Virus record (IMG/VR): IMGVR_UViG_3300028610_002494
Location: 47,838 to 111,837 of that record
DNA from: a virus
Strand: one strand, 5' to 3'
DNA: 64,000 nucleotides
Below are positions 1 through 41,113 of this stretch, piece after piece. Position numbers and translations under genes: made by a program. Under the pieces are notes generated by a model. It made no database searches. It had not been told where the DNA came from and saw nothing but the letters and a program-made list of their open reading frames with translations. Numbering within the stretch: the first letter of the stretch is position 1; every line of letters begins with the position of its first letter.

Positions 1-7
1 TGAAACA

Positions 8-229
8 ATGCGAAAAAGAATATCTAAAAGAAGTAAAGGAAAAGAACATAGTGAAAAAAGAGAAAGAAATTTAAGATCAAAAGCAAGTTGTTCTGAATCA
101 ACTTATAATAGACTTGAAGAAAATAGTACATTTATTAAAACTAAATTCGATACATCAGATTCTAAGATTTTTGATAATATAGTTATATATATATCTGAAA
201 TTATTGACAAAACACTAAAAAAGGAATAA
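8..229 (+). CDS. Hypothetical protein
   Basis: 73-aa ORF abutting the next gene; no motif recognised. Confidence 0.4.
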   Translation: MRKRISKRSKGKEHSEKRERNLRSKASCSESTYNRLEENSTFIKTKFDTSDSKIFDNIVIYISEIIDKTLKKE

Positions 230-231
230 AT

Positions 232-804
232 ATGGATTTTTTGATAAGAAAAATTAAAAATGAAAATGATAAAACACAAATTAAAATAATTTGTGAAAGT
301 GTGGACAATAAAACAGTGAAATCTTTTCCTAATATTTGGGAAAGATTTAATAACTGGGAAAAGAATCCACCTTATGTTGTTGAAATAGATGGAAAGATAA
401 TTGCTTTTATGGGATTCACGATTAATAGAAATAATTATATTAATTTTTATGATTTTGCAGTTTTACCTGAATACCAAAGAAAAGGTATTGGTTCAGCTTT
501 ATGGGATAAGGTTATTAAAATTGCAACAGAAAATAGTAAAACAAGAATAAAATGTTCTGCTCACATAGATTATGGTGGATATTTCTTTTACACTAAGAAA
601 GTTAATTGGAAACCAATTGCAAGAAAAGGGAAAGAATATAAATTTGATGCTTTAATTGAAGGAATTGATAATATTAATGATTTTACAAAAAGTATAAAGA
701 AACAAACTCCACCAGATAAAAAAGAGATTGAAAGATATCAGAGATTAGATGAGTATTTTTATAACTTAACTAAAAAAATATGGGAGTACTTTAAAAAATG
801 TTAG
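232..804 (+). CDS. GNAT family N-acetyltransferase
   Basis: Acetyl-CoA motif A FAVLPEYQRKGIGSALW; VVEIDGKIIAF strand; C-terminal KKIWEYF. Confidence 0.85.
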   Translation: MDFLIRKIKNENDKTQIKIICESVDNKTVKSFPNIWERFNNWEKNPPYVVEIDGKIIAFMGFTINRNNYINFYDFAVLPEYQRKGIGSALWDKVIKIATENSKTRIKCSAHIDYGGYFFYTKKVNWKPIARKGKEYKFDALIEGIDNINDFTKSIKKQTPPDKKEIERYQRLDEYFYNLTKKIWEYFKKC

Positions 805-1403
805 AAACAATTGATGAAGAAGATAAAATAATTAGGAAATTAACTTTTAAAGAAAAATTAGAAATTGGAAAATGTGGAGAAAAAATTACAGATGAGAGAA
901 TAGTAGATATAATCCATTTCTTTACAGCTTATAATTCACCAAGAAGATGGTATATAGAAAAAAGTGTATATCAAAAACTATCTCCATATGAAAGATATAA
1001 AAAATACCAAGGCAACGGAATTGATGGATTACTTCATTATGATAGCTTATTAGTTCAAGTAAAAACAAGACAACTTGCATATCTCTTAGAAGAAGACATA
1101 TATTTTGAATTAGGAAGAAGTATAAAAGGAATAAATAAATATAGTGGATGGTATTGGAAAAATATTGATTTATTATTATATTATTTTTATAGCTTAACAA
1201 AAAAGAAGATAATGTGTGGATATGTTATACTTCTGGATGAATTTAAGAAAACATATAACACTCCTGTAAAAATTAATAAGAAGTTTGAAATAAAATGTGA
1301 TTGGAACTTTAATCCAACAAAAATATATTTTTGTCCTAAATTTAAAGATTTTCCAAATAATTCATTTTATGATATAACACCAATAGTAAAGGAGCTGGAA
1401 TAA
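798..1403 (+). CDS. PD-(D/E)xK nuclease-like protein
   Basis: GKCGE...GIDGLL...VQVKTR...IYFE...SGW pattern typical of viral restriction-fold proteins. Confidence 0.5.
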   Translation: MLETIDEEDKIIRKLTFKEKLEIGKCGEKITDERIVDIIHFFTAYNSPRRWYIEKSVYQKLSPYERYKKYQGNGIDGLLHYDSLLVQVKTRQLAYLLEEDIYFELGRSIKGINKYSGWYWKNIDLLLYYFYSLTKKKIMCGYVILLDEFKKTYNTPVKINKKFEIKCDWNFNPTKIYFCPKFKDFPNNSFYDITPIVKELE

Positions 1404-1404
1404 A

Positions 1405-1821
1405 ATAAAACTAATTCCTGATGTAACAGATAAAACATTAGAAACAAAGAAATTTAATCCAAAATTAATTTATGAATCTATATTAAGAGAAACTGATATT
1501 TCTGAAGAAGATGCTAAAAGAATTATGGAAGAAGTTGTAAGAAAATTAGTTTTTATGGGTAAAAAAATAAAGTTCCTATCTGCTCGAATGATAAGAGAAA
1601 CGACAAATGCAACATTTCCAGAATATGGATTTGAAGAAGAAAGAAAAAAATATACAGTAATTGGAATTCCATTCTATGATTTAAAAAATTGGGTTGAAGA
1701 TAAAACCTTAATTCAAACAGAAATTGATAAAAAAATAGTAGAACATATTAGAACTGAATATTTAAATGTAGAAAACCTAATAGAAACAATAAGAAATGGA
1801 GAAAATAATGAGAGATTATAA
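1405..1821 (+). CDS. Standalone ATP-cone protein (NrdD N-terminus-like), probable ATA start
   Basis: Frame is open upstream of the annotated Met at 1525. It reads KKFNPKLIYESILRETDISEEDAKRIMEEVVRKL...FLSARMIRE...EYGFEEERKKYTVIGIPFYD, resembling the archaeal NrdD ATP-cone. GGAGCTGG lies 6 nt before ATA 1405. Confidence 0.7.
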   Translation: MKLIPDVTDKTLETKKFNPKLIYESILRETDISEEDAKRIMEEVVRKLVFMGKKIKFLSARMIRETTNATFPEYGFEEERKKYTVIGIPFYDLKNWVEDKTLIQTEIDKKIVEHIRTEYLNVENLIETIRNGENNERL

Positions 1822-2926
1822 TATAACAGACTACAGAACTGAAAGATGGAATGGTTTTAAGGATTATTATATTAAAGAAATGTACTGTGGTGATGATCCA
1901 AATTATCCTGCTTTAAATTATATTTGTGATAAATTAAAACTAACTGAAGAACAGAGATATTGGATTGCATTCTTATATGGAACTAATTATTGTGTTCCAA
2001 CAACATATTACATTTTTAAGGAATTTCCTGATTATGAAAGAATAGATATTGACGAACTACAACATTGGTGGGATAAAAATAAAGAAAAAACACATTTCCA
2101 AACAGACAGAGCAAAAGTAAAGAACTTTAATTATTTTGTAAAATGTGTTGAAAGCTATCAAGATTTAGTAGGAAAAAACCAAGTAGAAACTTTTGATATA
2201 TTTACTGAAATAGATGATAATCAAGAAAAATATAAAATGGTTTATGATTTTACTAATGAAATATTTTATTTTGGAAGATTTAGTTTATTTAATTATCTTG
2301 AAACAATTAATAAACTCACTAATTTAGAAATGGAACCAGATGGTTTAGATCTTAAATATGCAGAGAGTGCACGTAATGGACTATGTTATGCTTGTAATAA
2401 AGAAGAGTTTATCACATTACATCACAAAAAATCAAAAGAAAAGATAAATTATAGGTATTTACAAGAAAAACTCGAAACAATTGTATATGAATTAAAAGAA
2501 GAGAACCCTGAGATTGATGTAAACTACTGGAATGTTGAAACTGTTTTATGTGCATATAAAAAACTATTCTGGAACACAAGATATCTTGGTTATTATATTG
2601 ATAGACAAATGGAAGATATAATTAAATTGCAGAATAATGTAGATATAATAGATTGGAAAATTCTATGGGATTTTAGAGCTGAATTTCATCATCCACAATT
2701 TCTTGGTGAATTTAATGACTGGAATGGGATAAGAGAAGAGAACAAGTATTATGTAACAAAACATGGAATACTTGATATTAAAGAATTTCCTAAATATAAA
2801 ACCTGTTTAAGAAAAGTTGATTTACAATCTACTAAAAAACCAAAATTAATAAACAACTTAGAACATTATAAAAGAAGAATAATAAGCAAAAAACCTAAAC
2901 CAAAAAAAATATGGGAATATTTTTAA
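1796..2926 (+). CDS. Amino acid:DNA transferase-like (aGPT-PPlase2/ADDT) DNA hypermodification enzyme
   Basis: DDPNYPAL..., RYWIAFLYG, FQTDR, FGRFSLFNYLE, SARNGL, NVETVLCAYKK and RYLGYYIDRQ match the motif pattern of the phage thymidine-hypermodification transferase family. True start may be 1808. Confidence 0.75.
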   Translation: MEKIMRDYNITDYRTERWNGFKDYYIKEMYCGDDPNYPALNYICDKLKLTEEQRYWIAFLYGTNYCVPTTYYIFKEFPDYERIDIDELQHWWDKNKEKTHFQTDRAKVKNFNYFVKCVESYQDLVGKNQVETFDIFTEIDDNQEKYKMVYDFTNEIFYFGRFSLFNYLETINKLTNLEMEPDGLDLKYAESARNGLCYACNKEEFITLHHKKSKEKINYRYLQEKLETIVYELKEENPEIDVNYWNVETVLCAYKKLFWNTRYLGYYIDRQMEDIIKLQNNVDIIDWKILWDFRAEFHHPQFLGEFNDWNGIREENKYYVTKHGILDIKEFPKYKTCLRKVDLQSTKKPKLINNLEHYKRRIISKKPKPKKIWEYF

Positions 2927-2942
2927 AAAGAGGTGAAATATT

Positions 2943-3179
2943 ATAACAAATCATAAAGAAATAAGATACAAAATCTGTTTTAATTGTAAGGTGTTTATGC
3001 CAATTTTCACTTGTGATGCCATTAATCTACAAGAACTAACAAATTTCGAAAGAATACATAATGAACATATGGTTCAAACTATAAACTACAACGAAATACC
3101 TACAAATTATATATTTATTAAAGGCAAAAATGCAAGAGAAAGAACTTTAACACAAATTCAAAAAATGTTAGAAGTATGA
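2943..3179 (+). CDS. Small putative Zn-binding protein, probable ATA start
   Basis: Frame is open upstream of GTG 2991, giving ...RYKICFNCKVF...FERIHNEH (CxxC...HxxH). GAGGTGA lies 6 nt before ATA 2943. Confidence 0.55.
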   Translation: MTNHKEIRYKICFNCKVFMPIFTCDAINLQELTNFERIHNEHMVQTINYNEIPTNYIFIKGKNARERTLTQIQKMLEV

Positions 3180-3337
3180 AAAAATGTAAGGGATGTGGAT
3201 ATCCTCAAAATCCACCAAATAGCAATAAAATTTGGTTATCTGAGGATGGTCTATGTTCAATATGTTATTCAAAACAAATAAAACTTAAAAAAAATAATAA
3301 AAAACCTAAAAAAATATGGGAATATTATGATAATTAA
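3176..3337 (+). CDS. 53-aa zinc-finger protein with KKIWEYY tail (absent from ORF track)
   Basis: MKKCKGCGYPQNPPNSNKIWLSEDGLCSICYSKQIKLKKNNKKPKKIWEYYDN; overlaps both neighbouring genes. Confidence 0.65.
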   Translation: MKKCKGCGYPQNPPNSNKIWLSEDGLCSICYSKQIKLKKNNKKPKKIWEYYDN

Positions 3338-3818
3338 AATAAAGAAAATGGGAAGAAATGTAAAATTACCAACAAAACAAAGAGAAGGAGATGCTGGATA
3401 TGATGCTTATATTTATGGTTTCCAGAAATATACTCAAAATAAAATTAATAAAAATAAAAATCCAGTTAATTTGAATAGATCAGAATATATTTTAGAACCA
3501 TTAGAAAGGGTTGATTGTAGATTAGGATTTGCCACAGAAATTCCTGAAGGATATTATGCTCAAATTGTACCAAGAAGTGGTTTAGCAATTTGGAATGGTT
3601 TAACTGTATTAAATACACCTGCTACAATTGATTCTGGTTTCAGAAATGAATGGATGGTGATAATTGTTAATATTTCTGATAAAAAAGTGAAGTTAATAGT
3701 TGGAGACAGAATTTGTCAAATAATCATAAGAAAATTGGTGGAATTTGAATTTAAAGAAGTTAAAAAATTAAATAAATCTGAAAGAAATTTAAATGGATTA
3801 GGGAGCACAGGAAAATGA
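3327..3818 (+). CDS. dut: Trimeric dUTPase
   Basis: Motifs AGYD, PRSGLA, TIDSGFR, GDRICQ, RNLNGLGSTG. Confidence 0.95.
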   Translation: MIIKIKKMGRNVKLPTKQREGDAGYDAYIYGFQKYTQNKINKNKNPVNLNRSEYILEPLERVDCRLGFATEIPEGYYAQIVPRSGLAIWNGLTVLNTPATIDSGFRNEWMVIIVNISDKKVKLIVGDRICQIIIRKLVEFEFKEVKKLNKSERNLNGLGSTGK

Positions 3819-5017
3819 AAATATTAGTAATAGCAGGATATCTTGAAGCAAATATCAAGAATGAAACACACAAAACTCAAAGTATTAAAGGTGGAGCATC
3901 TAAAAGTATTACAAACATAGTTAATAGCTTAAGAGATATAAAAGGTATCCAAATAAAAGTTTTAACACAAAAATTTAGAAACAAACTCTTAAAATCACTT
4001 GATCTTGATGCTTATATATTAATTCCAAGAATAATAAAAAATATTTCGAAATTTAAACCTAACATTATTATAACACAAGACAGAATTGCTTTTCCAACAA
4101 TTCTCATTTCCAAAATAATGAAAATTCCTGTTATTTATATAATCAGATCTCCCACAGAGTTTTGTCCAAAATATGTAGATGTTGTTAACTATGGAAAAGC
4201 ATGTTCAGGAATAAATAACAGGAGACAATGTTTTAAATGTATTAATAAATGGAAAACCTTGCGGATTTTAATTGATAATAGACCAAAAGGTTCAGAATAT
4301 TCCATTAAAGCTTCTTTATTAAATGTTTTTTTTAAAATACGATATTTTATATGTTTATTCAATTTGTATTTAACTAAAAAAGCTAATATGATTCTGGTTG
4401 CTTCTACATTAATGAAAGAATTTTTTTCCAATAAGATAAACCAAGATAAAATTAAAATAATTAATATAACTCCAATCCACAAATATATAAATAATGTAAA
4501 TAGAAAAAAGAAACAATTGATATTTATCAGAACCCATTATAATGCTGCACATAAAGGTTTAAATTTCATTTTAAAATTATCAAAAATTATACCTGAAAAA
4601 TATCGTATTTTAATAGTTGGCAGTTCTGAGGACAAACAACAAGAAAATAATCCAAAAATATTAAATGTTGGATATATTTCTTCTAAAATATTACTTAACA
4701 AAATGTTTGCAGAATCCAAGATCACTTTAGTTCCATCTTTCTTTACTGAAGCTTTTGGAAGGATTATTCCTGAAAGTTTGTCAAATAAAACTCCAGTTAT
4801 CTCTTCTCCACAATGTGGTGCAAACCAATTTTTTAAGGAAAAAGATTTTTTAAGGGTTGTTCCTTTAAAATTAAACTTATGGATAAAAACAATTGAAGAT
4901 ATTATCCAAAATCCTCCAATTATTACTGATAATGATATTTCTCAAATTTATGAGCAATTCTCATTAGAAAAGAGTAAAAAAGATTTAATGAATATAATAA
5001 AAAATATTAAAAGGTGA
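3815..5017 (+). CDS. GT-B glycosyltransferase (GT4-like)
   Basis: MKILVI...GGAS; HKGL; LVPSFFTEAFGRIIPESLSNKTPVISS (EX7E motif). Confidence 0.9.
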   Translation: MKILVIAGYLEANIKNETHKTQSIKGGASKSITNIVNSLRDIKGIQIKVLTQKFRNKLLKSLDLDAYILIPRIIKNISKFKPNIIITQDRIAFPTILISKIMKIPVIYIIRSPTEFCPKYVDVVNYGKACSGINNRRQCFKCINKWKTLRILIDNRPKGSEYSIKASLLNVFFKIRYFICLFNLYLTKKANMILVASTLMKEFFSNKINQDKIKIINITPIHKYINNVNRKKKQLIFIRTHYNAAHKGLNFILKLSKIIPEKYRILIVGSSEDKQQENNPKILNVGYISSKILLNKMFAESKITLVPSFFTEAFGRIIPESLSNKTPVISSPQCGANQFFKEKDFLRVVPLKLNLWIKTIEDIIQNPPIITDNDISQIYEQFSLEKSKKDLMNIIKNIKR

Positions 5018-5364
5018 TTAAAATAAAAGAATGGAAAGAATGGAATTCATTTATACAATGGATATGTATTATTGGTTTTTTTTTAATAATTATAATGGTA
5101 TTTATTGAAGTTTTTTATTTTATTATAAATATTCCAGATGAACTTATTCTTGGGATTCGTGAAAATAGTATAGGGAAACATTATCTCAATAATCCAGAAT
5201 TAGTAGCTGAGATGGAAGCTTTAGCATCATCATCTGAGTTTTTACATTATACAATAGTATTTTTATTATATACATTGATATGTATAGTATTATTTTTTTC
5301 ATATAATGAGGTTAGAGAAAATGAAAAAATATTTAAAAAAAGGAAAAAACATAGAAAAAAATAA
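5014..5364 (+). CDS. Membrane protein (2 TM)
   Basis: Two hydrophobic segments. The annotated GTG lies within an AGGTGA SD, so ATA 5023 may be the true start. Confidence 0.55.
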   Translation: MIKIKEWKEWNSFIQWICIIGFFLIIIMVFIEVFYFIINIPDELILGIRENSIGKHYLNNPELVAEMEALASSSEFLHYTIVFLLYTLICIVLFFSYNEVRENEKIFKKRKKHRKK

Positions 5365-5617
5365 ATTGAAACACATTTTTAAATCTATTTTATTCTATAC
5401 TAAACTTGTGTTTTATGTTTCAATAGGAATTTTAAGTTTAGGAATGATATTTGTATTGTTTATGGGTTCGGATTTAGAAGAAGAAATATTTGAAGATGAA
5501 TATGAATTAATGAGGAGAAGAGAACAATTAGAAGATGATTTAATATCAGAAAAGACAAAAAAATACAATAAATTAACTTTAATAAAAAAAGAGGAAAATA
5601 ATGAAAGAGAAATATAA
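5306..5617 (+). CDS. Membrane protein (1 TM)
   Basis: Hydrophobic segment followed by a charged tail. Confidence 0.5.
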   Translation: MRLEKMKKYLKKGKNIEKNKLKHIFKSILFYTKLVFYVSIGILSLGMIFVLFMGSDLEEEIFEDEYELMRRREQLEDDLISEKTKKYNKLTLIKKEENNEREI

Positions 5618-6344
5618 AGATTGGAAAGAAGCATTTCAAATGAAAAAAAAGTATTCAAAAAACTTTCCATTTTGTTTCTATGATTTAGCTGCAAAATATT
5701 TACCTGAAGATGAGAAAGCTATAGTTATTGATGTTGGTTGTGGAGAATGTAGATTTGAGGATTATCTTGATCTATGGAACAAATATAAAAATTTATTTGT
5801 TTTAGATGGAAATCTTGAAACTGTTGATAAAATAAAAGAAAAAACAAGATTGATACATGAATTTGATTATACAATTGAATATATAGCACCAAATAGAATG
5901 TTATTTGAAAATGAATCAGTGGATTATATATTTTGTGGACACTTAATAGAACATCTTGATTTCAAGGAATTATATAAATTATTTAAAGAATTTGATCGAG
6001 TTTTAAAAAATGATGGAATTCTTGTTGTAAGCACTCCTATGTTATGGAATGGTTTTTATGGGACACTTAGTCATGTAAAACCTTATCATCCAGCACTTTT
6101 CAAGGATTATTTTTATACTGATGATGAAAATATAAACCCATCATATAAACCTATTTCCAGAAAATATAAACTTGAGGAACTTGTTTATAGATACCATACA
6201 TTTGTAGATATACATAATACAATGGGATCATCTATAAAAGCATTTGATTTTCTAATTCAATTCTCGAAGTATGTTTTGAGAGCTTTAGGAATAAAAAAAT
6301 ATACTCAAACTGGATATACAATAATTTTAAGGAAACAAAAATGA
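5601..6344 (+). CDS. Class I SAM-dependent methyltransferase
   Basis: VIDVGCGE; FENESVDYIFCGHLIEHL; RVLKNDGILVVSTP. Confidence 0.9.
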   Translation: MKEKYKDWKEAFQMKKKYSKNFPFCFYDLAAKYLPEDEKAIVIDVGCGECRFEDYLDLWNKYKNLFVLDGNLETVDKIKEKTRLIHEFDYTIEYIAPNRMLFENESVDYIFCGHLIEHLDFKELYKLFKEFDRVLKNDGILVVSTPMLWNGFYGTLSHVKPYHPALFKDYFYTDDENINPSYKPISRKYKLEELVYRYHTFVDIHNTMGSSIKAFDFLIQFSKYVLRALGIKKYTQTGYTIILRKQK

Positions 6345-7021
6345 ATAACATTAAAGATACAAGCTGGATTTCATATAAAACACTTCAATCACATTTTATG
6401 CAAATTTATTTAACAATAAAACTAAAAGCTAAAGATGTTCTTGAGATTGGAGTATTAAGGAAAATTGTCACTTCTATTTTAAATCAATATTGTAATTTAA
6501 CCACTCTTGATTTTAAAGAAGAGTTTAATCCAGACTTGATTATTGATATTACTGATTCTAAACAGCTTGATACCATTAAAAATAATGCTTATGATTTAAT
6601 ATTACTCTGTGAAGTGTTAGAACATATTTCTTATGAAAAAATAGATAAAATACTCAAAATATTAAAAAAGAAAACAAGAAAATACCTAATAATTTCAGTT
6701 CCAAATCAAACTACATATATAAATCTAACTTTCTTTAATCACAGTAATAATAGAATACTTAAAAAAATAAAAGATTATTTTAATTTATTTTTTATTAAAA
6801 TAGGAAACTTAATTTCAAAATTAGACTATAATATAAGGAAAAAACATAGAAAATATAAATCCGAAGGGACTTTCTTTCCTCATTGTTGGGAATTAGGAGT
6901 AGATAAATATAGTATAAACACATTTAAAAAACTATTAGAAAAGTATTTTACAATTATAAAAGAAGAAAGACTTAGAGATCATCCTTTTCACCATTTTTTT
7001 ATATTAAAAAAGAGGTTATAA
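6341..7021 (+). CDS. Class I SAM-dependent methyltransferase
   Basis: VLEIGV; YDLILLCEVLEHI; LIISVPN; HCWELG. Confidence 0.8.
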   Translation: MNNIKDTSWISYKTLQSHFMQIYLTIKLKAKDVLEIGVLRKIVTSILNQYCNLTTLDFKEEFNPDLIIDITDSKQLDTIKNNAYDLILLCEVLEHISYEKIDKILKILKKKTRKYLIISVPNQTTYINLTFFNHSNNRILKKIKDYFNLFFIKIGNLISKLDYNIRKKHRKYKSEGTFFPHCWELGVDKYSINTFKKLLEKYFTIIKEERLRDHPFHHFFILKKRL

Positions 7022-7022
7022 A

Positions 7023-7757
7023 ATGGGATTAACAAATGTTATCATTGATTTTCAAGAAGAAATCATTCAAAAAATAGGTTTTCAATGGCAAAACATAAGA
7101 ATATGTGAACTTGGTGCTATGTATATGAGAACAGTTGATATTCCTGCAAAAGAATATTATATTAAAGAAAAAAAAGTATTAGAACATATATCTATTGATT
7201 GGAATGGTATGTATGATTCACTTCCAATTGATTTATGTTTTCCTGTTCCTGAAGAATTATTAAATAGATTTCATTTAATAACTGATTTTGGAACAATAGA
7301 ACATGTAGATAATCAATATCAAGTTTTTAAAAATACACATGATATATGTACTAAAAATGGAATTATGATCCACATCTTACCAACCTTAAATTATTGGAAA
7401 TTTCATTGTCGTTATTTTTATACAAAAGAATTCTTTTTAAAATTAGCAGAATTATGTAAATATAAAACTCTTGATTTAAAAGAAGGAAATTGTTGTGATC
7501 CACCAATATTTAAGAGAGATTTGATTTATGTAGCATTTTTAAAACTAAATAATAATAAATTTACTTCAGAAAAAGAATTTAATAAGCTTAATATATTTGA
7601 TATAAAAGAACCAGATAATACTAACAAACTTAGAACAGAAAATATTGTTTACATTTTATGGAAATTAACAGAACACCAATTTTTTTTGAAGGGTTTTCGT
7701 AAAATACTTAAAAATATCTATAAGATATATATAAATGTTAAAAAAGGTATAAAATGA
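7023..7757 (+). CDS. SAM-dependent methyltransferase-like
   Basis: ICELGA; ISIDWNG; LITDFGTIEHV; GIMIHILP. Confidence 0.7.
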   Translation: MGLTNVIIDFQEEIIQKIGFQWQNIRICELGAMYMRTVDIPAKEYYIKEKKVLEHISIDWNGMYDSLPIDLCFPVPEELLNRFHLITDFGTIEHVDNQYQVFKNTHDICTKNGIMIHILPTLNYWKFHCRYFYTKEFFLKLAELCKYKTLDLKEGNCCDPPIFKRDLIYVAFLKLNNNKFTSEKEFNKLNIFDIKEPDNTNKLRTENIVYILWKLTEHQFFLKGFRKILKNIYKIYINVKKGIK

Positions 7758-8629
7758 AAACAAGAATATTCATACTCTGTGCAGGGAAAAATGTAAAATA
7801 TTATGGAATTACAAGACAATTATTAAAGATAAATGGAGAAGAAATATTAGGAAGAATGATTAGATTAATAAAAGAAGAATGTAATTATGAGATTTTTATA
7901 ATCACCAATAATGATATTATAGAGAATTATATTAAAAGTATTAGAAATAATAAAATTATACTTTTTCATCCTGCTGCTGAACGATATCATATGGAAAGCT
8001 TATATTCAACTAAAGAAGAATGGGTTGAAAGAAATATATTCTTATTTGGTGATGTAGTGTTCTCTAAACATGCTATAAAAAAAATATTAAATTCTGATAA
8101 TAAATTAAGTTTCTTCTTTAGAATAAAACCACATTTATATTTAAACAAACGTTATCCTGAAGGTTTTGGTATGTTAATTCCATTGAATGAAACTAATAGG
8201 ATGTCAGATATCATTTTAAGATCCTATAAAAGAGCATCTATACATGGTGGAGTATTTATATTTAATAGTATTTGGAAAGAACTTAATTTAAGATTAGGAG
8301 AAGAACATTTAGAATTTGAATCTTATAAAACACGTGATTTAATCAGTAAACTATGCTTAAATGAATTTATAAGAGGTATTTTTTATGGAATAATACGATC
8401 CATTGAAGGAAAAATAATACGATTTATTTTTTATAAAGCTAAAATATCTGATAAATGGAAAAATAAACTTGTTAAATTATTTTTAGGGAAAAAAATTCCA
8501 GATTATAATAAAAACTTATTATCATCTAAATACATTGTAGAAATACATGATATAACTGATGATATAGATCATCCAAGAGAGTATAAAGATTATATTAAAC
8601 TAATAGTGAAAAAAGGTTTATTACAATGA
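7754..8629 (+). CDS. Nucleotidyltransferase (NTP_transferase / LicC-like)
   Basis: IFILCAGK...RQLLKINGEEILGRMIRLI; FLFGDVVFS; TDDIDHPREY. Confidence 0.75.
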   Translation: MKTRIFILCAGKNVKYYGITRQLLKINGEEILGRMIRLIKEECNYEIFIITNNDIIENYIKSIRNNKIILFHPAAERYHMESLYSTKEEWVERNIFLFGDVVFSKHAIKKILNSDNKLSFFFRIKPHLYLNKRYPEGFGMLIPLNETNRMSDIILRSYKRASIHGGVFIFNSIWKELNLRLGEEHLEFESYKTRDLISKLCLNEFIRGIFYGIIRSIEGKIIRFIFYKAKISDKWKNKLVKLFLGKKIPDYNKNLLSSKYIVEIHDITDDIDHPREYKDYIKLIVKKGLLQ

Positions 8630-9540
8630 TGGATGCTACTGATAAATTTACTACAATTGGTTTTGAAATAACGAACCACTGTAATAAAAACTGTAAATTT
8701 TGCACTAAGATGACAGGATATAAATATAAAATCAGATATACAAAATTAGATGATTATGAATATGTTGTGTCTTGTATAAACAAGAAAGACAGAGAAAAAT
8801 TTAGAAAAGTAGTGATCACTGGTGGAGAACCACTTTTACATCCACATTTTATAGAATTAATGAATTTAGTAAGAAAAGATTTTCCGAAAGCTGAGATTAA
8901 AGTACAATCAAATGGAAGATTAATTAAAAGATTGCCACAAAAGAAATTAAGAATTTTACCTAATATAAAAAAAGTAATATTTTCAGTATCCCATTATCCA
9001 AGCTGGAACGATGAAATAAAGAAAATATATGACGGAAATATTAAAACACCGTTAATTTATAGAAGAGTAATCAGAAAACTAACCAAAAATAACAAATTTA
9101 TAAAATTACTCAATTTAGATTATAGAATTCCATTTATAAAAAAAGTAAGACGATTTATTAGCAATCCTTTTAAAAGAGGAAATGTTTACTTTAAGAATTT
9201 CACAGGATTTCGTGATCCTTATGTAGATCCAAATCTAACGAAAGAAAATGCAAAAATAGTTAGAAAAACATGTCATTATTTTATTTGGATAATAGACAGA
9301 AAGCTTTATAGCTGTTGTGTAGATTCTGTTTATGAAAGATATTATAACACCAAATCTGTTGGTATTAAATTTGATAAAAACTGGAAAAAAAATTATTTCA
9401 AATTACCAACATGGAGAGCTTGTGCTCATTGTCCACAAGGATATAATAGGTACATAGTAATTAGTTCAGGATTTGAAAAATATAAATTAATTAGTTTAAG
9501 AAAAAGATTAGAATTTGTGAGGATTAAAACCCATGTTTAA
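8626..9540 (+). CDS. Radical SAM protein
   Basis: CNKNCKFC; ITGGEPLLHP; SNG; C-terminal CC and CAHC. Confidence 0.9.
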   Translation: MMDATDKFTTIGFEITNHCNKNCKFCTKMTGYKYKIRYTKLDDYEYVVSCINKKDREKFRKVVITGGEPLLHPHFIELMNLVRKDFPKAEIKVQSNGRLIKRLPQKKLRILPNIKKVIFSVSHYPSWNDEIKKIYDGNIKTPLIYRRVIRKLTKNNKFIKLLNLDYRIPFIKKVRRFISNPFKRGNVYFKNFTGFRDPYVDPNLTKENAKIVRKTCHYFIWIIDRKLYSCCVDSVYERYYNTKSVGIKFDKNWKKNYFKLPTWRACAHCPQGYNRYIVISSGFEKYKLISLRKRLEFVRIKTHV

Positions 9541-9967
9541 AAAAATAAAATTATCACAATTCATTGGCAGACAATTATCAAGATTAAAAATGGGTCAAGT
9601 ATATTATGTAATGGGAATGTATTCTATAACAGCTGTAGGAATATTAAAAGTAGCATTTCCACAAATAAGTATTTGGACATTTATACTTTTTATTCCATTT
9701 ATGTTTGTTGGAGCTTTTTTAATTGGTTTTATTGCAGATAGAAGTAATGTTACAACGATGGATTATCAGAAGACAATAGAGATGACAAACAGATATTTAA
9801 CCATTTTAGACTTTAAAAATAATGATTTTAGAATACTCCAAATGGAAACTATGTTTGAATGGATAAAATCCTTAAAAGAAAATAAACCTTTAGATAAAAA
9901 TATATTAAATGAGAAATATAAAGAATTTTTAAATAAATGGAGTCCTAAAAAAGAAAATGAAAAATAA
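9533..9967 (+). CDS. Membrane protein (2 TM)
   Basis: Two hydrophobic helices; coupled to neighbouring genes. Confidence 0.55.
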   Translation: MFKKIKLSQFIGRQLSRLKMGQVYYVMGMYSITAVGILKVAFPQISIWTFILFIPFMFVGAFLIGFIADRSNVTTMDYQKTIEMTNRYLTILDFKNNDFRILQMETMFEWIKSLKENKPLDKNILNEKYKEFLNKWSPKKENEK

Positions 9968-10131: not shown

Positions 10132-10587
10132 ATGGAAAAAAATAAAGATTTAATTGATACTTTAGATCCACTACATTATTACACTAAAAAGGATTTATGT
10201 GGAAATTGTAAATATATAAAATCATTTTTATGTGATAAGAGATATGCTGAAGGAATTAACATAACCTATTTAGAACAATATCAAATTAAAATATATATAT
10301 ATAAATTTATATCAAATAATTTAAGAAAGATAATTGATTCATTACACGACAAAGAACTATATCATCATAGACAAGGTGGATATTTTGCTTTAAAATCAAC
10401 CAATTTCCATTGTGGTGAATCTTGTGATTGTGATTGTTCTACAGAAAGATGCTGGGAATTTGAAAGAGTACCAAGTAGAAGACAGCCACATTGCATCAAG
10501 TTTTTTGGTTTGGATTTACCTGAAAAATATAAAGAGAACAATATTACATTTATTTTAGGCAATTTAGAGTTTGAGAAAATAATATAA
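10132..10587 (+). CDS. Cys-rich metal-binding protein (possibly DUF2284-like)
   Basis: CGNC...FALKSTNFHCGESCDCDCSTERC...FGLDL. Confidence 0.4.
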   Translation: MEKNKDLIDTLDPLHYYTKKDLCGNCKYIKSFLCDKRYAEGINITYLEQYQIKIYIYKFISNNLRKIIDSLHDKELYHHRQGGYFALKSTNFHCGESCDCDCSTERCWEFERVPSRRQPHCIKFFGLDLPEKYKENNITFILGNLEFEKII

Positions 10588-10614
10588 ACAAGGTTTATAT
10601 AAACAAGGTTTATA
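10583..10614. promoter_or_regulatory. TATAAAC-N3-GTTTATA dyad, tandem pair
   Basis: Two overlapping copies, 15-bp period, spacer AAG. Confidence 0.8.
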
Positions 10615-10678
10615 TAAAATAAAATAAAGTTAAATAGTAAAATAGTCTTTAAATAATTATAGAGGTTAAAAATTAAAT

Positions 10679-11968
10679 ATGAAATATAAAATGAAAGAAT
10701 TAAGTATTGAAATAACATATAAATGTCCAATGAATTGTATTCATTGTAGCAGTAGAGCAGAACTTGAAAATGAGACAATGATACCAACAGAAAAGATTTT
10801 AGAAATGATTGGAAGATGTAAAATATACTGTGGAACTGAATGTGTTTCTCTTTCAGGTGGAGAACCATTTGAACATCCTGATTTCTGGAAAATATTAAAA
10901 CACATTAAAGCTCAAGGTTTAAAAAGTATAGTTTATTCTTGTGGAATTGAGATGTCACCTGATGGATATTATTGGTGTTTTAGTGATGAAAGAATAAAAA
11001 AACTAAAAACCTTATGTGATGTGTTAATAATAAGTTTACATGGAACTGGTGATAAACATAATAAAATATTAAATATTGGAGATACTGCTTTTTGGAATGT
11101 ATTATATACAATAATGAAAGCAGTGCGTGAAAGTATTAAAGTTGAAATTCACTTTGTTCCTATGTCTTTTAACTATAAAGACATTAAAATTATATATGGA
11201 GTCTGTATGGCACTTGGTGTTTCTAAAATGTCAATATTACGATATGTACCACAAGGAAGAGGATTAGAAACAAGTAAAACTGAAGGAGAAATAAACCTAA
11301 ATAAACCACAATTTATCGAACTACAATATGATATGAGATATATAAGAGATTTATCTAAAATCACTGGTATGACTGAATTTAGAATTGGTATTCCAGCAGA
11401 CTTTACATTTTTACTTGATTATCTTGAAGGGAATAATGATGCCAAAAAAACTAAAGCTTGTACAGGTGGAAAAACTAAAATACTTGTAAAAGCTGATGGG
11501 TTTGTTCAAGTATGTCCTGCTTGGAAAGAACTTGATCACCTTTCAGCAGGAAATATTTATAAAGAAGATATTGTAGATATATGGAAAAAAGGAAATACTT
11601 ATTGTAAATTTAGAGAATTTACCTATAAAGATTTAGGAGAACCATGTAAAAATTGTAAACTTGTTGAAAGTTGTTTAGGTGGTTGTGGAGCTCAAAGAAT
11701 TTTGAATTCAACCTTTAAAGAAATAAATGGACTAAAAATTGCTCCTGATCCATTATGTTTTTATGATGAAATAGAACTTACTAAAAAAGGGTTGATTGAA
11801 TTAATAGATATATTAGAACTAAAGAAATGGTTAATCAATAAAAAAGAAGAATATGAAGAAATTGCTGTTAATTCAATGTCAGATTCACGAGCAGTTAATT
11901 ATATGGCAAGAACAACTACTATTAAAGAAATCCTTAAATATATTGAAGAAATAAAAGAGATTAATTAA
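10679..11968 (+). CDS. Radical SAM/SPASM domain protein
   Basis: CPMNCIHC; SGGEPF; SPASM cysteines CTGG...VQVCP...CKNCKLVESCLGGCGAQR...DPLC. Confidence 0.9.
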   Translation: MKYKMKELSIEITYKCPMNCIHCSSRAELENETMIPTEKILEMIGRCKIYCGTECVSLSGGEPFEHPDFWKILKHIKAQGLKSIVYSCGIEMSPDGYYWCFSDERIKKLKTLCDVLIISLHGTGDKHNKILNIGDTAFWNVLYTIMKAVRESIKVEIHFVPMSFNYKDIKIIYGVCMALGVSKMSILRYVPQGRGLETSKTEGEINLNKPQFIELQYDMRYIRDLSKITGMTEFRIGIPADFTFLLDYLEGNNDAKKTKACTGGKTKILVKADGFVQVCPAWKELDHLSAGNIYKEDIVDIWKKGNTYCKFREFTYKDLGEPCKNCKLVESCLGGCGAQRILNSTFKEINGLKIAPDPLCFYDEIELTKKGLIELIDILELKKWLINKKEEYEEIAVNSMSDSRAVNYMARTTTIKEILKYIEEIKEIN

Positions 11969-12186: not shown

Positions 12187-14544
12187 TTGAGAAGAAGATT
12201 CACATTTGATATAGAAATTAATTATGATGAAATAGACCCATTTGATTTAGTAATTAAAAAAGGATCAAGTCCTATTCAAATGTTTGGTTGTTATGATTAT
12301 TATAAAAATAAATTTTATTCCTTTTTTTATCATAAAAACGTGAAATTAATACCTGCAGAAGAAATTAAAAATAAAATTGATAAAAAAATATATTTAATGC
12401 TTAAAAAACATTTTGGAAATCAAAAATTTGTTGTTAAAGAAGGATTTTTTAATTCTACTGAAAGTGGAAGAAAATGGAAATGTAGATATCTTTCTTTTAA
12501 TAATGAAAAAATAATGATTAGAGCATTTATGAAATTTGTTAAAGATATCAGTCCAGACATTTGGTCTGGGTTCTTTATTGAAACATTTGATCTTGTTTAT
12601 ATTATGAACAGATGTAAAACACTAAAAGTTAGTTATAAATATTTAAGTCCACTTTATGAAGCTTATATAAGTCATGGAAGAGCTAAAATAAGAGGAAGTA
12701 TAATATATGACACTCCTAAAACTTATGCTAAATATATGGGAACTCATCGTCATGCTAATTCACTGAAAAAAATAGCTGAATCACATCTGAAAAGAGATGA
12801 TGACCACAAAATAACTAAAACATCTGAAAGTATTATAAACGAAGATTGGTATGATAATGATTGGAAAAAATTCATAGAATATTGTTTAGTAGATGTAGAA
12901 TTATGTGTTTTATTAGAAGAAGAACTTGAACTAATAAGCATGGCAGAAGGATTTGAAAAATTTACTGGAACCAACCCTGAATTTGTATTTTTTCCTTCTC
13001 ATCTAATTGAAAGTACATTTAATTTCATTAAACCTATTTATGAAGAACAAGTATTAAAAAATGAATATAAAATTGCATTTAACACTAAAAAGAGAAGAAA
13101 ATTTGAGAAAGCAGCAGGTGCAAAAGTATTAGAAAGTAAAAAAGGATTTTATCGAAAAGGATTAATGATAATCCTTGATCTTGCAAAAGAATATCCAAAA
13201 ATAATAGAAAGTATAAATATATCACCTGAAACTTTAGTTAAAATAATAGATCAAAATGAGAAAGACAAATACAATTATTGTAAAGAAAATGATGTATATT
13301 ATGTTAAAGAACCAATAGGATTTGTTCCTTTTGCTTTTAAATTTCTTTATTTAATAAGAGATCGTATAGAAAAAGAAAGAGATAAATTTGAATTTGGTTC
13401 TGATAAATTTAATGATATGAACAAAAAAAGACAAACAGTAAAAGATTTGATAAATGCTGTCACAGGTCAAGCTGATTATGCAGACTCAATTATTCTTAGT
13501 CCAATATGTGCTAATTCATGTAGATTAACTGGACAAAAAGAAATAGTAATATCTGTTAATTACACAAAAAAATTTGGTATTGAATTAAAATTAAAACTTA
13601 AGGTTATTTATGGTGATACTGATTCTATTTTTGTTTGGTTAGAAAATGTACAAGATGTTGAGATTGCAAAGAAAATAGCTAAAGAAATATGTAAATGGAT
13701 ACAAGTTGGGTTTGATAAATATGCAAAAGAACTAAATTTAAAATCTCACCAATTTGAAATAGGTTTAGAAAAAATATTAGATATTTTTGTTAGTATAGGC
13801 AAAAAGAAAAAGTATTTTGGGCATATTTTATGGGCAGATGGTAATTATGTAAAAGAAGAAAGCAGTTTACTTGTAAAAGGATTTGAGACAAGAAGATCAG
13901 ACAGTAGTGATTTTACAGATAAAATACAAAAAGAAATATTTGGATTAATAAACAAAACAAGAATATTAGGATGGCATAAAGTAAGAAAAAAAATACTACA
14001 TAAAATAAAAGTGGAATATCCAGATGGGTTTTCAGAAGATAATTTACTTACAATTGGAATACCTAAAAAAATAAATAAACGATTTAAAGATTACAAAGTG
14101 ACAAATGCTCATCTAAGAGGATGTGAATATGCTAATAAATATGTTAATGCTAATTTTCATGCTGGTTCTAAACCTAAATTGATTTATATTAAAGAGGTTA
14201 AACAAAAAGGTGATATAACTTTTCCAAAAAAATATCCACCAACAGATGTATTATGTGTGCAAGAAGGTATGAAAATTCCAGAAGGAGTTTTTATTATTGA
14301 CAAAAAAACAATGCTGGAAAAAACAGTTTATAAAAAATTAAGACAAACACTTGATGTTGTAGGAATACCAATATCACAAATACAAAGTGGATTGAAACAA
14401 ACTAATATAAAAGATTATTTTAATAAATTTAGTAATGACAAAAAAATAACGAAAAAACATATTTTAACTATAAATAAAGAAAAGTTAGGTAAAATATTAA
14501 TTAACTCTAAAAATATTCTTAAAACTATGAAAAAAGAGGTTTAA
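12187..14544 (+). CDS. polB: Family B DNA polymerase with 3'-5' exonuclease
   Basis: ExoI FDIE; ExoII FDLVYI; ExoIII YCLVD; motif A DLAKEYP; motif B KDLINAVTG; motif C YGDTDS; KKKY; KGFETRRSD; PIP box QTNIKDYF. Confidence 0.95.
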   Translation: MRRRFTFDIEINYDEIDPFDLVIKKGSSPIQMFGCYDYYKNKFYSFFYHKNVKLIPAEEIKNKIDKKIYLMLKKHFGNQKFVVKEGFFNSTESGRKWKCRYLSFNNEKIMIRAFMKFVKDISPDIWSGFFIETFDLVYIMNRCKTLKVSYKYLSPLYEAYISHGRAKIRGSIIYDTPKTYAKYMGTHRHANSLKKIAESHLKRDDDHKITKTSESIINEDWYDNDWKKFIEYCLVDVELCVLLEEELELISMAEGFEKFTGTNPEFVFFPSHLIESTFNFIKPIYEEQVLKNEYKIAFNTKKRRKFEKAAGAKVLESKKGFYRKGLMIILDLAKEYPKIIESINISPETLVKIIDQNEKDKYNYCKENDVYYVKEPIGFVPFAFKFLYLIRDRIEKERDKFEFGSDKFNDMNKKRQTVKDLINAVTGQADYADSIILSPICANSCRLTGQKEIVISVNYTKKFGIELKLKLKVIYGDTDSIFVWLENVQDVEIAKKIAKEICKWIQVGFDKYAKELNLKSHQFEIGLEKILDIFVSIGKKKKYFGHILWADGNYVKEESSLLVKGFETRRSDSSDFTDKIQKEIFGLINKTRILGWHKVRKKILHKIKVEYPDGFSEDNLLTIGIPKKINKRFKDYKVTNAHLRGCEYANKYVNANFHAGSKPKLIYIKEVKQKGDITFPKKYPPTDVLCVQEGMKIPEGVFIIDKKTMLEKTVYKKLRQTLDVVGIPISQIQSGLKQTNIKDYFNKFSNDKKITKKHILTINKEKLGKILINSKNILKTMKKEV

Positions 14545-15733: not shown

Positions 15734-16492
15734 ATGAGAATATTTAAGAACAAAATTATCTTAGGAAATTGTTTAGATATCTTAAAATTTATAGATGATC
15801 AAGTAGATTTAGTTTTAACTGATCCACCACAATATAGATTAATTAATGATGATATTAAACTAAATAATAGAAAAGATTTTGTAAGAAAAGCCAATTTTGA
15901 TTTATTTAATTCATATAAAGATTTCCTTATTTTCACTGAAAAATGGATTAAATTAACATCAGAACTGATGACTAATAACTCAACAATATATATTTCATAT
16001 GCTGAACAATTCTCAAATGACCTAATTAATATTTGTAAAAACTATGATTTATCATATTTTGATACATTTTATTGGCATAAAACCAACCCAATGCTACAGA
16101 TCAGAAAAAGAAACTTTAGATCATCAGTAGAGACAACCCTAATATTTACAAGAGGAAAATACACATTTAATTTCTTAGAACAGAGTAAAATGCATGATTT
16201 TATGGAATTGCCAATATGTTTAGGAAAAGTAAGACTAAAGAATAAAAAAGGTGGAACATTACATCCAACACAAAAACCATTAAAACTAATCAAGCATTTT
16301 GTTAGAATCTCATCTAACATTGGAGATAAAGTATTGGATCCATTCTCTGGCACTGGAACAACAAATGTTGCCTGTAAAATGTTAAATAGAAAATGTTTAG
16401 GTATAGAAATTAATGAGGAATATTATTTAGCAAGTATTAAAAGATTAAATAAAATAAATACCACAAAATCAGGTGTATTAGGTTGGTTATAA
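15734..16492 (+). CDS. DNA N6-adenine/N4-cytosine methyltransferase (beta class)
   Basis: LTDPPQY (variant of DPPY); HPTQKP; VLDPFSGTGTT; LGIEIN. Confidence 0.85.
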   Translation: MRIFKNKIILGNCLDILKFIDDQVDLVLTDPPQYRLINDDIKLNNRKDFVRKANFDLFNSYKDFLIFTEKWIKLTSELMTNNSTIYISYAEQFSNDLINICKNYDLSYFDTFYWHKTNPMLQIRKRNFRSSVETTLIFTRGKYTFNFLEQSKMHDFMELPICLGKVRLKNKKGGTLHPTQKPLKLIKHFVRISSNIGDKVLDPFSGTGTTNVACKMLNRKCLGIEINEEYYLASIKRLNKINTTKSGVLGWL

Positions 16493-19579: not shown

Positions 19580-20233
19580 ATGTCTAAAAAGAAAAAAGTA
19601 AGAGTTAGAAAAGAAAAAATTGCACTTACAGAAGAACAAGTTAAAGATTATCTTAAAACTATAAAAGAAGAAGATAAAAAACATAGTCATAGGAATTATT
19701 TGATGGCATTAACTTGGTTCAGCACAGGATTAAGAGTTGGAGAAATGTGTAATTTTATAGTTGGTTGGATTGAAAAAAGTAATGATAATTATATACACGT
19801 GAAACAAAATGAAGCACCATTTGTATTCGCACCAAAATATGGATCTACAAGAAGAATAGCTGTCCAAAAGGATTTAATTAAAGAACTGAGAAAATATTTA
19901 GCTGGAAGAACTAAAGGATATGTATTTAAACCACAATCTAACAATCAAACAAATCCTTATGCTAAATTTCATGACAAATCTCCAAATCCAATATTTAATA
20001 AATATTTCAGAGAAACAAAATCAATTGGAAGAAACCTTGGCACACATACATTTAGAAGAACTTTTGCTACTCAATTAGCATATAGTAAACCACCAGTTCC
20101 ATTGCCTAAAATTAGTTATTATCTTGGTCATAGAGACATACAAACAACATTAAATTATCTAAAGCAGATCACGAACGATGACCATACTGAACTCTTGAAT
20201 GTAGATTATATTAAAGATATATATAAATATTGA
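19580..20233 (+). CDS. Tyrosine recombinase/integrase (catalytic domain only)
   Basis: TGLRVGE; PKYG; HTFRRTFAT; LGHRDIQTTLNY. Confidence 0.92.
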   Translation: MSKKKKVRVRKEKIALTEEQVKDYLKTIKEEDKKHSHRNYLMALTWFSTGLRVGEMCNFIVGWIEKSNDNYIHVKQNEAPFVFAPKYGSTRRIAVQKDLIKELRKYLAGRTKGYVFKPQSNNQTNPYAKFHDKSPNPIFNKYFRETKSIGRNLGTHTFRRTFATQLAYSKPPVPLPKISYYLGHRDIQTTLNYLKQITNDDHTELLNVDYIKDIYKY

Positions 20234-40445: not shown

Positions 40446-41113
40446 TAAAAAACTCAAAAGAGGTGTAAATTATGGTTGAAGAAGTTAAAGCTTATAAAAC
40501 AACAGATAACGTTATATTTGAAAATGAAAAAAATGCTAAAAAACATCAAATAGAAATAGATTTTGATGATGGATTAAAAAAGTTAGTAGAAAAACACATA
40601 TCATATTATGATAATGAAGTTATGGTATTTGATTTCATTAAAGAACATAAAATAGAAATATTTAATTTATTATTATTAAAAAACATTTAAAAGAGAATAA
40701 AAAATGCCAGAATGTATGGAATGTGGAAAGGATATTGAATTAACCCAATGGAACATTTGGAATATATTTCATATTTGTTATGAATGTGAAGAACATTTGA
40801 ACGAAAAAGCAAGGTGTCCATATTGTAATGGATATTTTCCATGTCTTAGAGCATCAAAATTTAAGGAACATATTGAAAATTGCAGAAAAAATAAAAAAAT
40901 TCACAAAAATTTAAATGTATAAATAGTCTTTACAGATTATAGAGAGAACGTCAGTAGTAAAAAAATTTTGAGTTTATATAAATAACCTATGAATAGAGAC
41001 GAAATTATAAAACATGAGAAAAAAGCCTGTACTATGCGAAACATTTATATACTTTATTTCTACAGAGGGATAATTTAAGTAAATTGAAAAATAAAATTAA
41101 AAGAGATAAAAAA

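Follow-up and report, generated by a model that had tools for sequence, protein, structure and literature searches.

Can an element linked to archaea carry out amino-acid-derived thymine hypermodification, a chemistry that to our knowledge has been worked out only in bacteriophages, and if so, from what activated base would it start? The question is raised by a 64,000-nucleotide stretch of DNA (the window), which comprises bases 47838–111837 of the 111,837-bp IMG/VR record IMGVR_UViG_3300028610_002494, classed there as a virus with direct terminal repeats. We read the interval from genome position 46363 to about window position 3337, together with window positions 10132–11968, as a phage-kind thymidine hypermodification module in a closed element that probably has an Asgard archaeon as host, and assign this reading a probability of about 0.55. 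Phage-type systems built around an amino acid:DNA transferase (AADT) are known. The literature search returned no paper describing these enzymes together in archaeal viruses. An initial annotation, made from the sequence alone, had proposed a module of this type from four genes, for a GNAT acetyltransferase, an ATP-cone protein, an AADT and a dUTPase. All four genes are present where they were placed, with Pfam confirming three of them. To judge from sequence comparison and structural models, the main interpretation is largely right: the element appears to be Asgard-linked, and its AADT module is of the phage type, with an acetyltransferase genetically coupled to it and a gene that probably encodes the DNA-base kinase.

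Sequence, catalytic motif and fold all identify the gene at window 1796–2926 (+ strand) as a genuine AADT, and its predicted activity is amino-acid transfer. The family is also abbreviated ADDT and was formerly called aGPT-Pplase clade 2. The protein matches PF18724 (ADDT) at 72.2 bits (cut-off 26.2), or 73.4 bits in a six-frame genome search, and also has a weak aGPT-Pplase3 match. It is ~30% identical to ViI-like Ackermannviridae homologs (E 1e-17 to 1e-20) and 18–19% identical to M6 gp51 and PaMx11 gp46. Residues 247–252 (VETVLC) align with VETVLC of M6 and VETILC of PaMx11, which keeps the Glu-Thr-x-x-Cys site. Active-site Cys and neighbouring Glu residues are essential in M6 gp51 and ViI gp247, where their mutation abolishes activity (PMC8989533), and the crystal structure of gp46, also called PUGT (PDB 8Z2M), has given roles to Glu243, Thr244 and Cys247 (PMC11472151). 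The equivalent E248, T249 and C252 of the window protein are invariant across 30 homologs. Searches of PDB sequences with the single AADT sequence and with a profile returned nothing, and gp46 was found by fold search only. An AlphaFold (AF2) model with a confidence score (pLDDT) of 90 has gp46/PUGT as its top Foldseek match in the PDB (probability 1.0), and alignment to 8z2m with VIA-align gives Z 18.1 over 255 residues (root-mean-square deviation 3.4), against Z 8.6 for the next match, the AGOG glycosylase. The model has the two-helical-bundle PUGT fold, which is distinct from that of helix-hairpin-helix glycosylases. The transferase identity first suggested from the letters is thereby borne out: the best structural match is the 5-phosphomethyldeoxyuridine (5-PmdU) glycinyltransferase gp46 and no ordinary glycosylase. 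Scanning viral contigs for a single-protein pattern turned up no close relative. In 400 Asgard-phylum genomes a search for PF18724 gave no match, and the AADT-kinase-GNAT stretch is essentially without a DNA match in Asgard genomes.

The acetyltransferase is tied to the transferase by gene fusion. Window 232–804 (+ strand) encodes a GNAT N-acetyltransferase (PF00583, E 5e-15), and two relatives, P0003 (540 aa) and P0005 (550 aa), carry an AADT followed by a GNAT in one natural fusion protein; over residues 359–532 of P0005 the window GNAT shares 62% identity. The two genes overlap in loci L091 and L092. GNAT genes are AADT neighbours in 31 of 80 viral and 19 of 60 metagenome loci. Since relatives fuse the two proteins, the GNAT can be placed in the same pathway as the AADT, and the genetic evidence for this predicted role is strong. 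A partnership that had been proposed from gene proximity in the window therefore gains a functional link from the relatives.

A candidate for the kinase that would activate the base lies immediately before the GNAT gene. Its 204-aa P-loop product is encoded on the + strand at genome 47452–48066 (L004:11452-12066), with the C-terminal 75 codons in window 1–229, four genes upstream of the AADT. The initial annotation had expected a kinase for 5-hydroxymethyldeoxyuridine (5-hmdU) in DNA upstream of the window, and a P-loop gene of the 5-hmdU DNA kinase (5-HMUDK) kind is indeed present, nearer than supposed, with a sub-threshold Pfam score. Its Pfam matches are weak (AAA_17/AAA_18; HMUDK_HMUD1, PF18748, at 14 bits with a cut-off of 27 and E 0.035), and there are none to HMUD2 (PF18747) or HMUDK_hel (PF18723). 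The validated PaMx11 kinase gp49 likewise falls below the PF18748 cut-off (18 bits), which makes the profile test a weak one. The gene is the sole PF18748 match in the genome. Columns common to this protein, M6 gp54, PaMx11 gp49 and a ViI-type kinase comprise GxxxxGK, GxY, MDxI, EG and R...K, and its best alignment partner is of the M6 gp54 type. A profile comparison (hhalign) of its family with validated and AADT-adjacent kinases gives a probability of 97.6% (E 4e-12); a second P-loop family reaches 48% and an unrelated control 0.1%. Two homologs of the kinase, P0249 and P0250, come from contigs whose lengths, 17,412 and 58,538 bp, equal those recorded for the AADT-GNAT fusion contigs. A tblastn search with the kinase against phage genomes gave no match. 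We predict with moderate confidence that this P-loop protein is the DNA-base kinase of the pathway.

Loci of relatives show what company such transferases keep. Among 80 IMG/VR loci with AADTs 38–48% identical to that of the window, neighbours include GATase (73), TET/JBP dioxygenase (63), ParB_N (62), P-loop kinase (52) and GNAT (31). Together with the AADT these genes form a conserved module, the ParB-dependent T-dioxygenase system (PMC13229309). TET/JBP occurs in none of the 61 loci of a closer AADT subclade, where the neighbours are kinase (36), GNAT (19), ParB-like (15), GATase (10), family B DNA polymerase (PolB; 9), radical S-adenosylmethionine enzyme with a SPASM domain (rSAM/SPASM; 7), thymidylate-synthase-like (7) and DUF2284 (6) genes. 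The closest locus, L088 (81% identical, on a LAZR01 contig of the same low GC), is syntenic from DUF2284 to AADT. In L089 (61%, same low GC) the order is ATP-cone, AADT, small open reading frames (ORFs), orf151, rSAM/SPASM and PolB. The rSAM/SPASM, DUF2284, kinase and PolB genes are conserved partners that surround the AADT across L088, L089, L093-96, L102 and L142. A HMUDK_hel gene (170 bits) adjoins the AADT in L102, and a mini thymidylate-synthase-like gene does so in L093-96; because of these two adjoining genes, the family context is clearly one of thymidine hypermodification. Two further genes of these loci may be recorded here. A protein of about 414–540 aa is encoded just downstream of the AADT in L008, L011, L012, L019, L023, L065 and 23 metagenome loci. 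It occurs where TET/JBP is undetected, in a subclade where ParB-like genes are common; it has no homolog in the window genome and no PDB sequence match, and it might be another missing enzyme of the pathway. In L093-96, a 458-aa protein (L093:3830-5206) with a C-terminal low-molecular-weight phosphatase/arsenate-reductase domain lies between the kinase and rSAM/SPASM genes.

The remaining conserved partners lie at either end of the cluster. The N-terminal half of a DUF2284 protein (66 bits) is encoded at genome 46363–47022, just upstream of the kinase, and the Cys-rich orf151 (151 aa; window 10132–10587, + strand) corresponds to the C-terminal half of the relatives' 390-aa DUF2284 proteins. 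Alignment thus shows DUF2284 divided between two Cys-rich genes that flank the modification cluster at a distance of 11 kb from each other, whereas it is fused in L093-96 and L142. The orf151 gene adjoins the rSAM gene in L089 as well. The radical SAM/SPASM enzyme itself (window 10679–11968, + strand) combines PF04055 with a SPASM domain; no specific NCBIfam equivalog was found for it. The gene is beside or near the AADT in L089, L093-96 and L102, and its product is a probable tailoring enzyme of the pathway. Genetic coupling of tailoring enzymes to the AADT is therefore seen twice, in the AADT-GNAT fusions and in the adjacency of rSAM/SPASM in relatives. An archaeal-type PolB (window 12187–14544, + strand; PF00136, PF03104) closes the cluster. 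It is 54–81% identical to proteins of uncultured sediment contigs with LCGC14 tags, the next matches being archaeal PolB proteins at 25–31%, and it lies near the AADT in 9 metagenome loci.

Short terminal peptides offer a further connection between the gene products. C-terminal KKIWEY(F/Y) ends the GNAT (KKIWEYFKKC), the AADT (KKIWEYF) and the small orf53 (KKIWEYYDN), and N-terminal (S)L-x-x-FIG begins the kinase (MSLEKFIG), DUF2284 (SLMDFIG) and orf144 (...LSQFIG). Each motif is terminal in only its three ORFs among 196, and the terminal peptides are conserved in the AADT, kinase and DUF2284 of relatives. The element's FEN1 homolog ends in a canonical PCNA-interacting (PIP) box, QINLAKFL, and the shared peptides match its hydrophobic spacing but lack the Gln. 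The genome has no PCNA match in Pfam. The peptides probably dock the enzymes on one common partner; that this partner is a sliding clamp is a speculative possibility.

A pathway can be proposed from these components. First, 5-hydroxymethyluracil would be present in the element's DNA. The P-loop kinase would then phosphorylate its hydroxymethyl group. In the third step Cys252 of the AADT would attack C6 with Glu248 as acid, so that phosphate is expelled, an exocyclic methylene forms and a free amino acid is added; enzyme family, motif and fold are established for this step, and the substrate is presumed. The GNAT would next N-acetylate a free amine of the appended residue, a step for which the coupling comes from the fusions and the chemistry is conjectural. 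Because the AADT is nearer the serine-type ViI enzymes (~30%) than the glycine type (18–19%), an adduct of the N-acetyl-O-seryl type is a reasonable guess. The rSAM/SPASM enzyme and the split DUF2284 protein, given their conserved neighbourhood, could serve as further tailoring or redox partners. More speculatively, the shared terminal peptides would dock these enzymes, perhaps at the sliding clamp, to act on newly made DNA.

Several observations weigh against a working module. The most serious is that the closed genome is without a detected ThyA-like hydroxymethylase or TET/JBP dioxygenase by five search approaches. Six-frame Pfam searches with PF00303 (ThyA), PF12851 (TET_JBP) and PF18723 found nothing; hidden Markov models built from genes adjacent to relatives' AADTs (73 TET/JBP, 9 thymidylate-synthase-like) had no match; and hhalign of all ORFs of at least 110 aa against TET/JBP, the mini thymidylate synthase and PaMx11 gp51 gave probabilities of at most 7%. 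Moreover, the kinase lies under its Pfam cut-off and P-loop kinases share a general resemblance, the rSAM/SPASM enzyme has no similarity that would indicate orthology to the M6 rSAM enzyme gp53, and the GNAT is no detectable ortholog of PaMx11 gp48. Capsid and terminase genes were unrecognised by Pfam among the ORFs scanned, so that "virus" is a database classification only. Compared with the complete pathway (Lee et al. 2018, 2021), the element thus has no detected gene for a 5-hmdU source. The thymidylate-synthase-like hydroxymethylase that the initial annotation had expected upstream was not found anywhere in the closed genome; of the two enzymes whose absence from the complete genome it had named as counting against the module, the hydroxymethylase is undetected and a kinase-like gene is present. 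A weak JmjC_2 match at genome 13738–14559 was considered as a dioxygenase and rejected, its Atlas model resembling winged-helix regulators. The product of orf201 was likewise considered as a hidden thymidylate-synthase-like enzyme and rejected, as it lacks similarity to the 201-aa mini thymidylate synthase of L093 and its conserved motif looks PD-(D/E)XK-like. The gap may extend beyond this genome. ThyA, TET/JBP and ThyX are also missing by Pfam from three other viral records with an AADT, of which two are estimated to be complete, and undetected 5-hydroxymethyluracil sources may therefore be more general.

On the sequence evidence, either the activated base is reached by a new route or the module has no substrate. 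Tentatively, an Asgard virus could hypermodify thymine with neither a ThyA-type hydroxymethylase nor TET/JBP, drawing its activated base from the rSAM/SPASM-DUF2284 pair or from ThyX, with PIP-like peptides holding the enzymes at the fork; we regard this combined proposal as possible and distinctly less probable than the module itself. Its parts can be weighed separately. If rSAM/SPASM, with the split DUF2284 metalloprotein as redox partner, oxidised thymine in DNA without O2, it would replace TET/JBP in a functioning module. The distribution of genes fits, as TET/JBP accompanies most AADTs of the 80 related loci, usually with ParB and GATase, and is missing from the closer subclade in which rSAM/SPASM and DUF2284 are conserved extra partners. 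DUF2284 also shares its N-terminal peptide with the kinase. The sequencing run behind the record is labelled as a subsurface metagenome, and marine-sediment LCGC14 tags mark close relatives of the PolB and kinase; we assume these habitats to be anoxic. However, rSAM and DUF2284 co-occur with a thymidylate-synthase-like gene in L093-96 and L142, which is a better fit to tailoring (compare the M6 rSAM isomerase), no specific rSAM subfamily was matched, and thymine oxidation by rSAM/DUF2284 has no precedent that could be cited. Such a replacement of the dioxygenase is thus unlikely.

It is similarly improbable that the AADT-kinase-GNAT set makes no thymine adduct here, whether as an inactive remnant or as a system with another target, such as host DNA or another activated base. 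This would account for a genome in which the substrate-forming step was not found, and the three AADT records that lack ThyA, TET/JBP and ThyX by Pfam suggest that the family may not be fully described by the known scheme. Against it, the AADT has kept all its catalytic residues, which do not vary among homologs, the genes stand close together in an order that relatives at 61–81% identity retain, and both the fusions and the shared docking peptides speak for a pathway that selection keeps working.

The last alternative for a working module involves ThyX (genome 32142–32789, 143 bits), the genome's only pyrimidine C5 one-carbon transferase, which would supply 5-hmdUMP instead of dTMP if water added to the exocyclic-methylene intermediate of the flavin-dependent reaction. 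An exocyclic methylene does occur along the ThyX reaction path (PMC8989533, discussion). Of 18 viral records with an AADT, TET/JBP occurs in 13, none of which has ThyX, and ThyX occurs in two of the five without TET/JBP; ThyA is present in none of the 18. Fisher's test of this split gives p = 0.065, or 0.02 with the window genome included, and in L012 a ThyX gene lies 3 kb upstream of the AADT. This route is nevertheless quite improbable, since the protein retains all canonical ThyX motifs, is 54–55% identical to ThyX of two Asgard-class genomes and 28% to that of the AADT virus L011 with no specialised viral clade, lies 17 kb away from the cluster, belongs to an enzyme type that viruses often carry merely for dTMP, and has no ThyX-type hydroxymethylase as a counterpart in the literature searched. 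In these features it resembles an ordinary thymidylate synthase of host origin.

The preferred reading, a phage-kind thymidine hypermodification module, can be set beside four characterised or described systems. In the PaMx11 pathway to 5-acetylaminomethyldeoxyuridine (5-AcNmdU), gp49 is the 5-HMUDK, gp46 the glycine:DNA transferase, gp47 a flavin adenine dinucleotide (FAD) lyase and gp48 the acetyltransferase (PMC8989533, PMC11472151). PaMx11 and the element both have a P-loop kinase, an AADT with the same fold and Glu-Thr-x-x-Cys site, and a GNAT, and an acetylated end product is expected in both. They differ in that the AADTs are 18% identical and the GNATs are not detectably orthologous; PaMx11 has an FAD oxidoreductase and a ThyA-like hydroxymethylase (gp51), neither of which is present in the element, while the element adds rSAM/SPASM, DUF2284 and ATP-cone partners and would have an archaeal host. 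ViI-type phages (Ackermannviridae), which make 5-(2-aminoethoxy)methyldeoxyuridine (5-NeOmdU) with gp243/gp67 kinases, the serine:DNA transferase gp247 and a pyridoxal-phosphate (PLP) decarboxylase, have the closest characterised AADTs (~30%). In both, a kinase gene lies upstream of the AADT, directly so in the ViI-type phage examined, but the phage kinase is of the HMUD2 family (PF18747, 477 bits), to which the element's kinase has no match. A PLP decarboxylase was not observed in the element. ViI replaces T by way of a ThyA-like hydroxymethylase. The M6 pathway to 5-(2-aminoethyl)deoxyuridine (5-NedU) uses the kinase gp54, the AADT gp51, the rSAM isomerase gp53 and the PLP decarboxylase gp52. 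It resembles the element in combining kinase, AADT and radical SAM enzyme, and the element's kinase aligns best with the gp54 type. Beyond their superfamily the rSAM enzymes are unrelated, that of the element being of the SPASM type and that of M6 photolyase-like, and the element has no PLP enzyme. Finally, the ParB-dependent T-dioxygenase modules of metagenomic phages (PMC13229309; NAR 2021 Figure 2 contigs), with TET/JBP, ParB, GATase, kinase and AADT, contain the AADT subfamily nearest to that of the element among viral contigs, with a kinase in 52 of 80 loci and a GNAT in 31. The element differs in lacking TET/JBP, ParB and GATase and in having rSAM/SPASM, DUF2284, an ATP-cone and a PD-(D/E)XK-like protein.

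Should the module be active, a virus linked to Asgard archaea would shield its DNA by phage-type chemistry, which would matter for the restriction-like defences of those archaea that stand nearest to eukaryotes. The 5-hmdU gap in a closed genome poses a testable question about O2-independent or flavin-dependent activation of the thymine methyl group. The AADT-GNAT fusions and shared docking peptides are direct handles for biochemistry, and new DNA-modifying transferases could be used as 5-hydroxymethyluracil labelling tools.

An exact 144-bp repeat terminates the record, and because a 3,579-codon ORF (window 55018–64000) stays in frame across it to genome 1–1901, the genome is taken as closed, either circularly permuted or terminally redundant. 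The CheckV completeness figure of 35% may be disregarded, since the genome is closed. GC content is ~24%, and the + strand holds nearly all genes. No tRNA genes were found in the genome, and its replication genes are of archaeal type (RFC, PolB, PriL, FEN1 and ERCC4). A protein encoded at window 43097–43975 is 48–50% identical to genes in two metagenome-assembled genomes (MAGs) of Promethearchaeota; the identity lies in its C-terminal domain, which in the Atlas resembles Asgard-specific proteins and is structurally like proteins that in Promethearchaeota are fused to LRR or Ras/Roc modules. DNA of the dUTPase block described below is 64–79% identical to Asgard-phylum genomes, which supports an Asgard host. 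The Asgard link suggested by the initial annotation is thus backed both by the DNA similarity of neighbouring genes to many Asgard-phylum genomes and by the protein shared with two MAGs. A DNA search of Asgard genomes gave no spacer-like short perfect matches among the matches listed. An Asgard archaeon is a well-supported and probable host, with no CRISPR match to prove it.

The dUTPase (window 3327–3818, + strand; PF00692, E 1e-21; phrog_135, E 4e-42), which had been counted as a member of the modification cluster, is better regarded as incidental. Its DNA is 68–75% identical to well over 100 Asgard-phylum genomes, and it is the first gene of a block that continues at window 3815–9967 (+ strand), where domain matches resemble a glycan or nucleotide-sugar locus. 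This accessory part encodes a GT4 glycosyltransferase, two small ORFs (5014–5617), two SAM methyltransferases, orf244, a sugar-1-phosphate nucleotidylyltransferase-like protein, a radical SAM enzyme and orf144. The GT4, MT1, orf244 and nucleotidyltransferase-like genes have 64–78% DNA identity to Asgard genomes, and Asgard-similar DNA spans much of window 3327–8100. The whole 3327–9967 block is missing from the close relative L089. Asgard DNA similarity and absence from L089 together mark the block as a host-derived insertion and no core part of the module, and sequence similarity points to a recent insertion. Possible targets of its enzymes are virion glycans, the host surface or the modified base.

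Within the module, neighbouring genes overlap or are separated by gaps of 1–3 nt, and three further genes accompany the enzymes discussed above, along with the ATP-cone gene. The latter encodes a stand-alone 138-aa protein (window 1405–1821, + strand) that is assigned from a fold model. Its start is probably ATA at 1405, with GGAG at 1391, because L088, L089 and L097 conserve the reading frame ahead of ATG 1525; the ATG-started ORF (1525–1821, 98 aa) drops 40 conserved N-terminal residues. That shorter ORF has no PF03477 match at E<0.1, and the full-length L089 homolog reaches E 0.053 and 14.5 bits (cut-off 25.8). A sequence-profile search of the PDB with the protein found nothing. The AlphaFold model (pLDDT 72–90 over residues 10–90) has the beta-hairpin and four-helix ATP-cone fold, and its top Foldseek matches in the PDB are all ATP-cones, including those of class I and III ribonucleotide reductases (RNRs): NrdB 5olk, NrdR 9fxk and the class III RNR 9d3x (probability 1.00, E down to 5.6e-4). 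In L088 and L089 the ATP-cone gene immediately precedes that of the AADT. Before it, orf201 (window 798–1403, + strand; 201 aa) has a possible PD-(D/E)XK-like motif, GID...VQVKTR, recognised from alignment only. This protein has no Pfam or PHROG match and only two representative homologs among 1.8 billion proteins, and it is syntenic in L088. Downstream of the AADT, two small ORFs of 62 and 53 aa (window 2991–3337, + strand) are conserved beside the AADT in L089, and orf53 starts with a CxxC motif.

Other genes of the element lie apart from the module. A tyrosine integrase and a type IA topoisomerase are encoded at window 19580–20233 and 41084–43084, respectively. Two N6/N4 DNA methyltransferases are encoded at genome 35263–36696 and window 15734–16492, the first fused to an Mrr-like nuclease domain, and the element may thus carry further DNA modifications besides those of the thymine module.

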